DNA from: Girardia tigrina
Taxonomy: Eukaryota
Direction of reading: 5' to 3'
Assembly: GCA_001938485.1 (NCBI GenBank)
Contig: MQRK01227159.1
Location: 1-64,000, forward strand
DNA: 64,000 nucleotides
The notes beneath the pieces were generated by a model. That model was not told where the DNA came from. It saw only the letters and a list, made by a program, of their open reading frames with translations, and did not search any database. The stretch's first letter is position 1; the number at the start of each line of letters is the position of its first letter. Below are positions 20,539 through 22,604 of the stretch, piece by piece. The position numbers and the translations under genes were made by a program.

Positions 20539-22604
20539 CGAAAAATAATGGCGGTTTTTGAGCTTTATACTTTGTTTATCTACTTTGATATGTATATAAG
20601 TTTAAATACATTAGTGTTAGATATTATTTGAAATCTTATGCCTAGCTGTATATTGCTATAGCAATTATTATTATATTGCTGTTATTTTTTAGAATATTTA
20701 CGGTGCTAAATTAATAATTGAAAAAATTAAAATTCGAGCAATTTTCTTGTACGAATTTAAACTGGGTAGTAAAGCAGCAGAAACGGCTCGCAGTATCAAT
20801 AAAGCGTTTGGCAAGGGAACAGCTTCTGAGCACACAGTGCAATGATGGTTTCGAAAATGTTCTGATGGAGATGAAAACCTTGAAGATGAAGAAGGTCGTG
20901 GTCGTCTAGTTGCTGTGAACAACGACAATTTGAGGACAATGGTGGAAACAGATTCCCGTACAACAATCAGAGAACTTGCAGATGGGTTTGGATCATTTAA
21001 AACAACTTGGAAAAATCAAGAAACTTGATAAATGGGTTCCACATGATTTAAATGAAAATCAAAAGAACCGACCCTATGAAATTTGTTCTGCCAATCATCT
21101 TCGCAATAAAAACGATCCATTTCTTGATCATATTGTTACCTGTGATGAGAAATGGACCCTGTATGATAACCCACGTCAATCTGCACAGTGGTTGGACAAA
21201 GATGAAATACCGAAACACTTTCCAAAACCGAAACTAACACCCCATAAGGTTATGGTGAGAGTTTGGTGGTGTGATGCTGGAATTATCCACTATAGTTTCT
21301 TGAATCCAGTTGAAACAATCATAGTGGAGAGGTACTGTCATGAAATTGATGAAATGCATAAAAATTGAAAACCCTTTGTCCGGGATTGGTCAATCAAAAA
21401 AGTCCCATCCTTCTTCATGATAACGCTTGTTTCCGAATTGTCCCACAGAAGTGAACATCGGGGCCCATAGAGATGTCTTCGGATTCCAGGATACAATCAA
21501 GGCGACATTCAACTGGAATTTGATCAAGAAAATCAGATCGACACTCACGAGTTTGTCTTTCAAGTCGACCGATTCAACACTCGCTCTCTCGTACGAAGAG
21601 ATATTGTAGAAATTCACATCATTGTTGGCGATCGACGCCAATAATCCGGCCCGACCATCTATTGCATTATTTCGGATGTTTTTCATGTAATTAGTTGATG
21701 ACGGTTTGAATGGATGAAGCGTTTGAATAGAGCGCACTCCAGTTGCTCTACCTTCGCCCAAAAACATCCAAATAGGTCCACACATCACCCAAAACAACAT
21801 TCCGTGGACTAATTCAATTTTCAAACACATAATTAGTTCTGAAATCAATTTCGATATGATTCCTGAGAACGAATAAAACTTCTCGATTGTCGAATAAAAT
21901 TGAATCGGTTGTCTCTTTATTTCCCCCACACATCTCAATTCAACTGATTTATTCAATTTAGACATAACGAGAATCAGAAATACGTTTAATAGAAGTAAAA
22001 TCGTGACGATATAAAAAAATTCGCTCGATATCAAATGAAACACGTATTTATTTATTCAAATAATACATTTAAACAACATTCTAGAATAATTAAACTGGAT
22101 TTTTCCCTCCTCTTAATTACAATTCAAAAATTTTATAAATATATATATATAATTTTTTTTACCTTTAATTTTTTTTTAAATTTTAATAAAAATTAATATA
22201 TATATATATATATATTCCTTTATCAATTCTTAACAACGCTAGACCTCATATTTCAAAAGTGACTCTTCAAAAGCTTAATGAGTTGGGCTATGAAACCCTG
22301 CTTCATTCACCATATTCACCAGACCTCTCGCCAACGGACTTCAACTTTTTCAGGCATTCGTACAACTTCCTACGTGAAAAAATTTTCAAAAATCAAAATA
22401 ATGCTCAAAATGCCTTCCAAGAATTCGTCGCTTCGAGAACCGATGCATTTTATGCTGATGGAATAAAACAACTTGTTTCTCGTTGGCAAAAATGTATTGA
22501 TGCCAACGGTTCATACTTTGATTAATAAACTTTTGTTTCTGTGAATTTGCACGTCTTTGAAGTTTGTGTCCCAAAACCGCCATTATTTTTCGACCAACCT
22601 AATA
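20539..22604 (+). mobile_element. Near full-length mariner (DD34D) interrupted by an 808-bp insert
   Basis: TIRs CGAAAAATAATGGCGGTTTT / AAAACCGCCATTATTTTTCGACCAACCTAATA; WVPHDL, IVTCDEKW, HDNA|RPH split by the insert, YSPDLSPTDF; stops and a deletion. Confidence 0.93.
21428..22235 (-). other. TG...CA insert carrying an intron-containing gene 5' fragment (possibly WD40-like)
   Basis: 5-bp TSD ACGCT; ATG at 21965 (MSKLNKSVELRCVGE...); intron 21513-21548 (gtgag..ttccag) and probable intron 21809-21862. Confidence 0.8.

Follow-up and report, generated by a model that had tools for sequence, protein, structure and literature searches.

An apparent chimera of two host-gene fragments with integrase-like ends in a decayed mariner element of Girardia tigrina

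We have analysed an 808-bp insert that splits a decayed mariner element of Girardia tigrina, within a 64,000-nucleotide stretch of contig MQRK01227159.1 (hereafter the window) that is AT-rich eukaryotic DNA with many decayed transposons. Judged by its sequence, the insert is a chimera of pieces from two different host genes. The pieces meet in a microhomology, in-frame deletions of 63 bp and 279 bp have shortened them, the insert has TG..CA ends and a flanking 5-bp duplication, and it has repeated copies. It is very probable that an enzyme of the integrase family inserted the chimera, when the three readings that invoke one are taken jointly. Among these we favour, tentatively and with slightly less than even confidence, a multi-copy two-gene cassette made by template switching of a reverse transcriptase and then inserted into mariner by an LTR-type integrase.

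The host element belongs to the Tc1/mariner group (20539..22602, plus strand; Pfam Transposase_1, E=4.4e-21), and its translation contains stops and frameshifts. An N gap truncates its left end, while the right inverted repeat ends at 22602 and is followed by TA; perfect inverted arms of 20 nt lie at 20539-20558 and 22573-22592. The insert (21428..22235, read on the minus strand, TGTT...AACA) separates the codons for HDNA (21416-21427) from those for RPH (22241-22249), and the target-site duplication ACGCT stands on either side of it, at 21423..21427 and 22236..22240 on the plus strand. Contig data were taken from runs X1, X2, X5 and X22, four of 24 runs, those of small share being left out. 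Mariner contigs with an empty site skip exactly 813 bp, that is 808 + 5, and show no loss of mariner sequence; among the best 15 of 60 joints, the best-supported 813-bp joint is carried by 36 contigs in X1, 26 in X2 and 1 in X22. The coordinates, the ACGCT flanks and these empty-site contigs agree with the earlier placement of the insert between AACGCT and AGACCT, splitting the HDNARPH motif. An 807-bp insert with a 6-bp AACGCT duplication fits equally well, and we favour the 5-bp duplication because of the TG..CA ends. For comparison, 125 of 59,868 window positions have a 5-bp flanking repeat at the insert's spacing. The two ends, as read in the sequence, lack poly(A), and this, along with the TG..CA ends and the 5-bp duplication, upholds the view that the insert is no classical processed pseudogene. 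There is no long direct repeat or LTR pair in 20539-22620, and the insert itself is free of long internal direct repeats, has terminal inverted repeats of about 4 bp at most, and gives no match to local elements other than low-complexity hits. Near its right end lies an AT-rich imperfect palindrome with (TA)n (22135..22215). Single contigs from the DNA runs cover at most 330 bp of the insert each, and positions 22125-22224 were skipped as repeat.

A stop-free frame of 209 codons (21429..22055, minus strand) crosses all junctions of the insert, and P0001 is its translation from the first ATG (21965-21429, minus strand). Residues 12-69 of P0001 match P0008, P0009 and P0011 at about 55%, and the set matched by residues 82-158 and 160-179, P0002-P0007, is unrelated to these, so that the single parent gene proposed from sequence alone has to be abandoned. 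On the minus strand, the 5' part of a putative TMEM60/TMEM185-like membrane-protein gene forms segment A (21715..22046, the upper limit being approximate), supported by homologues, Atlas and X5. Segment B (21496..21727) comes from a candidate beta-propeller gene suggested by Atlas and matches the related copy L001 at 93% over 232 bp, and segment C (21428..21495) is a downstream piece of gene B past a large deletion, matching P0002 288-316. Segments A and B have the same sense orientation and frame, and at their in-frame junction they overlap in a perfect 13-bp microhomology, TTCAAACGCTTCA (21715..21727, minus strand). The fit of a parent-A contig extends to 21715 and that of B copies, from the other side, to 21727 (both loose ends; the L001 match starts at 21727), and the parents therefore share these 13 identical bases, an overlap with a chance of 7e-8 for one given register.

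The deletions also keep the frame. Relative to P0002, 93 codons (279 bp) have dropped out between 21496 and 21495; segment A lacks 63 bp at 21756/21757 (by X5 coordinates, and as a 21-residue gap against P0011) and about 54 bp at 21934, a loss inferred solely from X5 coordinates. All four junctions are in frame (chance 1 in 81, one length being inferred). Except for the window copy's deletions, segment A and the RNA-like X5 contig are colinear; at 22034, where the window reads TTG, the loose end of this contig shows, by eye, an ATG in frame. Further upstream, a short stretch (22088..22124, minus strand) is also found upstream of segment B in L001, in the same orientation (32/37 identities, E=1.6e-5); these 37 bp have one match in the window. 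Its recurrence suggests that segment A may have replaced about 560 bp of an older unit that carried B. Other copies of B (L001 1109-1590, P0002-P0007) have a different upstream frame of 120 residues, and their GC-rich 3' part ends at one point, after which the flanks differ. L001 has its own in-frame deletion relative to P0002, and its positions 1-360 on the minus strand resemble a reverse transcriptase, presumably of the Penelope type.

The identities of the parents are leads drawn from Atlas. The top three hits for parent A carry PF10269 (Tmemb_185A) at 0.83-0.85, which points to a TMEM60/TMEM185-like gene; Pfam gave no hit for it, and PDB hits for the A profile were at chance level. Parent B falls with propeller-like clusters at 0.88-0.93, which suggests a beta-propeller-like gene, possibly one of the Nup214 type. 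It had no Pfam hit and no PDB sequence hit, absences that are no evidence against a propeller, and two low-confidence models (pLDDT 27 and 32) and three fold searches were uninformative. The earlier suggestion of a WD40 protein, made from the string VSWNP, is thus compatible with the propeller lead, but the family, sequence and fold searches name no parent. None of 1,240 candidates was a longer B homologue, and among 1,034 only P0002 and P0007 were homologues of near length. P0010 (E=1.4e-5), a repetitive protein of bacterial type with weak matches, was dropped as a homologue, and the viral and prokaryote collections gave no relatives.

The sequence-only reading had placed two introns in the insert, and the minus-strand frame is open through both. 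The supposed 54-bp intron with a damaged donor (21809..21862, minus strand) is gene A coding sequence: it is conserved like its flanks in three homologues (9/18 identities inside versus 23/40 in the flanks for P0008, 10/18 versus 18/33 for P0009 and likewise for P0011), and X5 record 25, which covers 21757-21934, keeps it without a gap. As for the 36-bp stretch GTGAGT...TTCCAG (21513..21548, minus strand), the string is there and its signals are strong and rare, with only 2 matches to the pattern in 124,650 bases, but it is in frame and stop-free. It is unspliced in L001 and P0002-P0007. In X5 it is not depleted, being covered by 6-7 contigs in what is possibly repeat background; X5 coverage of segment B relative to DNA is about as low as that of mariner, and because of this it is probably background, the joints considered being the best 15 of 60. 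A 45-bp intron with the same GTGAGT donor occurs in the same organism, and GC content (14/36 in the stretch, 13/45 in the local intron, 74/179 in the B exon) gives no separation. The 12 residues of the stretch would, we assume, fill a strand of a Nup214-like propeller. On balance, we consider it rather unlikely that this stretch is a true intron. As the 54 bp are exon and the 36 bp are no more than a possible intron, a genomic DNA or pre-mRNA template is not established, and the main argument for it, two retained introns, largely fails. The local short-intron style can be seen in exons at 16641-17232 (plus strand), with introns of 151 bp and 45 bp; these exons give a weak SOS1-type PH hit, and we take them to be RasGRF-like.

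The right end of the insert (22227..22235, plus strand) reads TTCTTAACA, or TGTTAAGAA inward, a motif common to the ends of a local element family of 450-530 bp. Its TGTTAAG fits the LTR integrase-site consensus TGTTRNR, as stated in the part of PMC3601003 available to us, and the resemblance to (G/C)TCTTAA(C/T)A on which the sequence-only reading had remarked is real. The left end, TGTTTCC at 21428, departs from the consensus, and the paired form TGTTRNR...YNYAACA is not present. In longer B copies the reading frame continues past this left end (P0002-P0005 run on for at least 77 residues), and we read the end as a cryptic TGTT end, an internal site of those copies; the idea of a mimicked attachment site holds, and is clearest here. 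One consensus end combined with TGTT at the other has a joint chance of about 1e-5 per end pair. In 124,650 bases, TGTTAAGAA occurs 8 times and TCTTAA(C/T)A 14 times, 6 of the latter being ends of the one local family. Members of this family start with TG(T/A)GAGGAATAT and end with TCTTAA(C/T)A; the end motif is shared by elements at 12594-13123, 41187-41650 and 3708-4157 (all plus strand), and related ends lie at 10389 (minus), 17609 (minus) and 32957 (plus). Clean 5-bp duplications flank three of the six copies, and four of the six end in TA and not CA, which is unusual for solo LTRs. Beyond the 9-bp end motif, the insert and the local family have no homology.

Contigs from the DNA runs show that the chimera is repeated. 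Single contigs that span the A-B junction have a depth of 1,271 in X1 and 1,193 in X2, about 9 and 12 times that of parent-like contigs (142 and 101), and since these contigs differ from the window copy in ways of their own, there are at least two chimera lineages. Segment B is highly repeated: dozens of distinct contigs cover each position, with a summed depth of 1-2e5 (a sum that is no measure of copy number) against about 140 for parent-like A contigs. P0002, P0003, P0005 and P0007 are alike in sequence as far as one point, after which they diverge, as copies at different loci would, and P0002-P0007 are probably such copies annotated as genes. We take X5 to be an RNA-like run because its mariner-to-gene depth ratio is about 89, compared with about 52,000 in X1; among the best 15 of 60 joints, no X5 contig bridges the A-B junction.

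Differences from the window copy are non-synonymous in 8 of 11 codons against X5 (among the 12 X5 differences listed) and in 13 of 16 against L001. The 21 of 27 scored differences that are non-synonymous equal the neutral expectation, and the substitutions in the insert look neutral. Alleles private to the window copy are absent from X1 and X2 contigs, which drop rare variants. We considered the open frame as evidence of selection and rejected it, the chance of no stop being 0.11-0.54 for 15-40 substitutions. We see no sign of function at this locus, where the copy is decaying within a dead mariner. Elsewhere in the window, a second chimeric-looking gene copy (41845-43133, minus strand) begins with a ThiF-domain start (E=3.4e-11) and continues, after unassigned pieces, into a piece of SUMO-activating enzyme subunit 2 (E=7e-4) and a tail that is presumably PWWP-like; no intron is evident in its first part, and no convincing TG..CA or duplication boundary was found at 41.8-43.1 kb. 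It has stops and frameshifts, and because of the frameshifts it weakens any general in-frame rule. Three long frames at 45408-46963 (minus strand) make up a decayed transposon-like gene (the one frame that was scanned has no Pfam assignment), and a 213-codon open frame without a Pfam hit at 31428-32069 (minus strand) is possibly another gene fragment.

Gene capture by LTR and TIR elements has been described, also for maize (PMC2774510, available in part), and the insert can be set beside several known systems. As far as the accessible text of Tan et al. (2016, PMC5131818) goes, junctions of microsimilarity and chimeras of several parents are the signature of LTR-mediated retroposition, and all 15 polymorphic copies there are flanked by LTR-element sequence that replaces the internal ORFs. 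Our insert shares with those retrocopies the partial gene copies, the two-parent chimera, the absence of poly(A) and the non-autonomous amplification; its junction similarity is 13 bp as compared with their median of 6 bp, and unlike them it has neither an LTR pair nor an element body, and one of its ends lies inside host-gene sequence. It works, then, like an LTR-mediated chimeric retrocopy but lacks the flanking LTRs. Microhomology junctions also mark capture at the DNA level, according to the part of Tan et al. (2021, PMC8277862) that we could consult, and the insert resembles the Pack-TIRs and Pack-MULEs of that text in being a multicopy gene fragment with junction microhomology inside a TIR transposon; non-TE sequence does lie between the ends of a TIR element here, namely within mariner. 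Unlike Pack-TIRs, it has its own TG..CA ends and 5-bp duplication, and its microhomology joins gene to gene, not gene to mariner. In Pack-TIR capture, the TE-cargo junction arises from gap filling or fork switching, and in place of this we find a clean 5-bp duplication and no mariner loss. The insert's own ends and duplication argue for a separate insertion, not gap filling.

With the solo LTRs of Gypsy, Copia and BEL elements, as portrayed in the available part of PMC3601003, the insert has in common TG..CA ends, one TGTTRNR end, a length below 1 kb and a short duplication, but about 630 of its 808 bp are host-gene coding sequence and its second end matches over only 4 bp. It has TGT ends like Ginger1 and Ginger2/Tdd, and a 5-bp duplication as in Tdd-4/5 only, to judge from the section of PMC2836005 at hand; unlike Ginger elements, it is without inverted repeats of 40-270 bp, its duplication is not 4 bp and its left end departs from TGTNR. 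A full-text literature search (titles and abstract starts, few subscription papers, no supplements) returned no animal exon chimera that lacks LTRs and TIRs and has att-like ends.

Based on these comparisons, we propose the following course for the reverse-transcription reading. A repeated passenger sequence with exons of gene B would have existed first. A polymerase copying gene A would then have switched templates within the 13 bp that A and B have in common and carried on along the B sequence, so that the new sequence took the place of the roughly 560 bp that lie in L001 between its shared upstream motif and B; further jumps may have produced the internal deletions. An integrase acting in trans would have used TGTTAAG, the consensus-like end, and the cryptic gene-B end, cutting the target with a 5-bp stagger. 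Mariner was probably hit by chance, since this element is abundant, and the inserted copy would now be decaying neutrally. We favour the RNA route because of the sense orientation of the pieces, their shared frame and their colinearity with the RNA-like contig, as in LTR-mediated retroposition, and an LTR-type integrase is favoured by the end motif and the 5-bp duplications (3/6 copies) of the local family. Against this proposal, paired LTRs are absent, the left end departs from the att consensus, and four of the six local family copies end in TA; the strong 36-bp splice signals and the local 45-bp GTGAGT intron also make a DNA template possible. The AT-rich end of 190 bp could be promoter DNA.

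The main competitor, a possible though somewhat unlikely one, is capture at the DNA level, in which template switching during repair or replication formed the chimera and an integrase-like DNA transposase (Ginger2/Tdd-like, or the enzyme that moves the local TG..TA/CA family) moved it by one true and one cryptic end. It would accommodate the retained 36-bp intron-like stretch, the AT-rich upstream DNA, the missing LTR pair and the local copies that often end in TA. The partly available sources add that Tdd-4/5 give 5-bp duplications and Ginger ends are TGT (PMC2836005), that microhomology is found at 67.6% of Pack-TIR breakpoints, and that Pack-TIRs become multicopy by later transposition (PMC8277862). 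Yet the insert lacks terminal inverted repeats of at least 40 bp and has no homology to the local family past the 9-bp end, metazoan Ginger duplications are 4 bp in the consulted part of PMC2836005, and our analysis identified no transposase of the Ginger2/Tdd-like kind. A third integrase-based origin, which we hold to be improbable, makes the 808 bp the LTR of a non-autonomous retro-element that had absorbed gene fragments, LTR-LTR recombination having left a single copy and its duplication; the size, the TG..CA ends, the 5-bp duplication, the consensus att at one end and the approximately 10 similar copies fit, whereas the left end is internal to the frame in longer B copies and off the consensus, no AATAAA stands near the 3' end in sense orientation, and no copy with two LTRs appears among the contigs.

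Without an integrase, a piece of the repeated chimera might have been inserted by chance during end-joining or gap filling, with ends and duplication that only look integrase-like, and then amplified as mariner cargo in the manner of a Pack-TIR. Mariner retains inverted repeats and could carry cargo, but TGTT at both ends, together with an insertion that removed no mariner sequence and left a clean 5-bp duplication, makes such an accident very unlikely. Least credible of all, and to our mind nearly certainly wrong, is the original proposal of one unspliced genomic or pre-mRNA fragment from a single WD40 gene with two introns: the 36-bp string with canonical signals and the propeller lead agree with it, but two unrelated protein sets match the halves, which refutes a single parent, and the coding nature of the 54 bp refutes that intron.

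A wider form of the cassette proposal may be imagined, although we think it unlikely to be right. It would posit a class of cassettes of shuffled host exons, free of LTRs and TIRs, which are mobilised by an integrase acting on a 9-bp att mimic and on cryptic ends in coding sequence, and whose in-frame junctions (4/4 here) are kept since an open frame aids propagation; such a class would amount to an engine of exon shuffling, by which one propeller-gene fragment would have reached hundreds of copies.

In conclusion, gene-fragment capture by mobile DNA is known, and the animal cases described retain the body of an element, in the form of LTRs or TIRs. The mobile unit described here seems to consist almost entirely of host-gene sequence bounded by ends of the integrase type, of which one is cryptic; one of its fragments is highly repeated. 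Should other copies confirm independent insertions, it would show how little an integrase needs in order to spread chimeric gene pieces, and it would also serve as a warning that such copies will be annotated as genes. If insertion by an integrase holds, as is likely, the insert is an animal example of mobile DNA that shuffles and copies pieces of genes.
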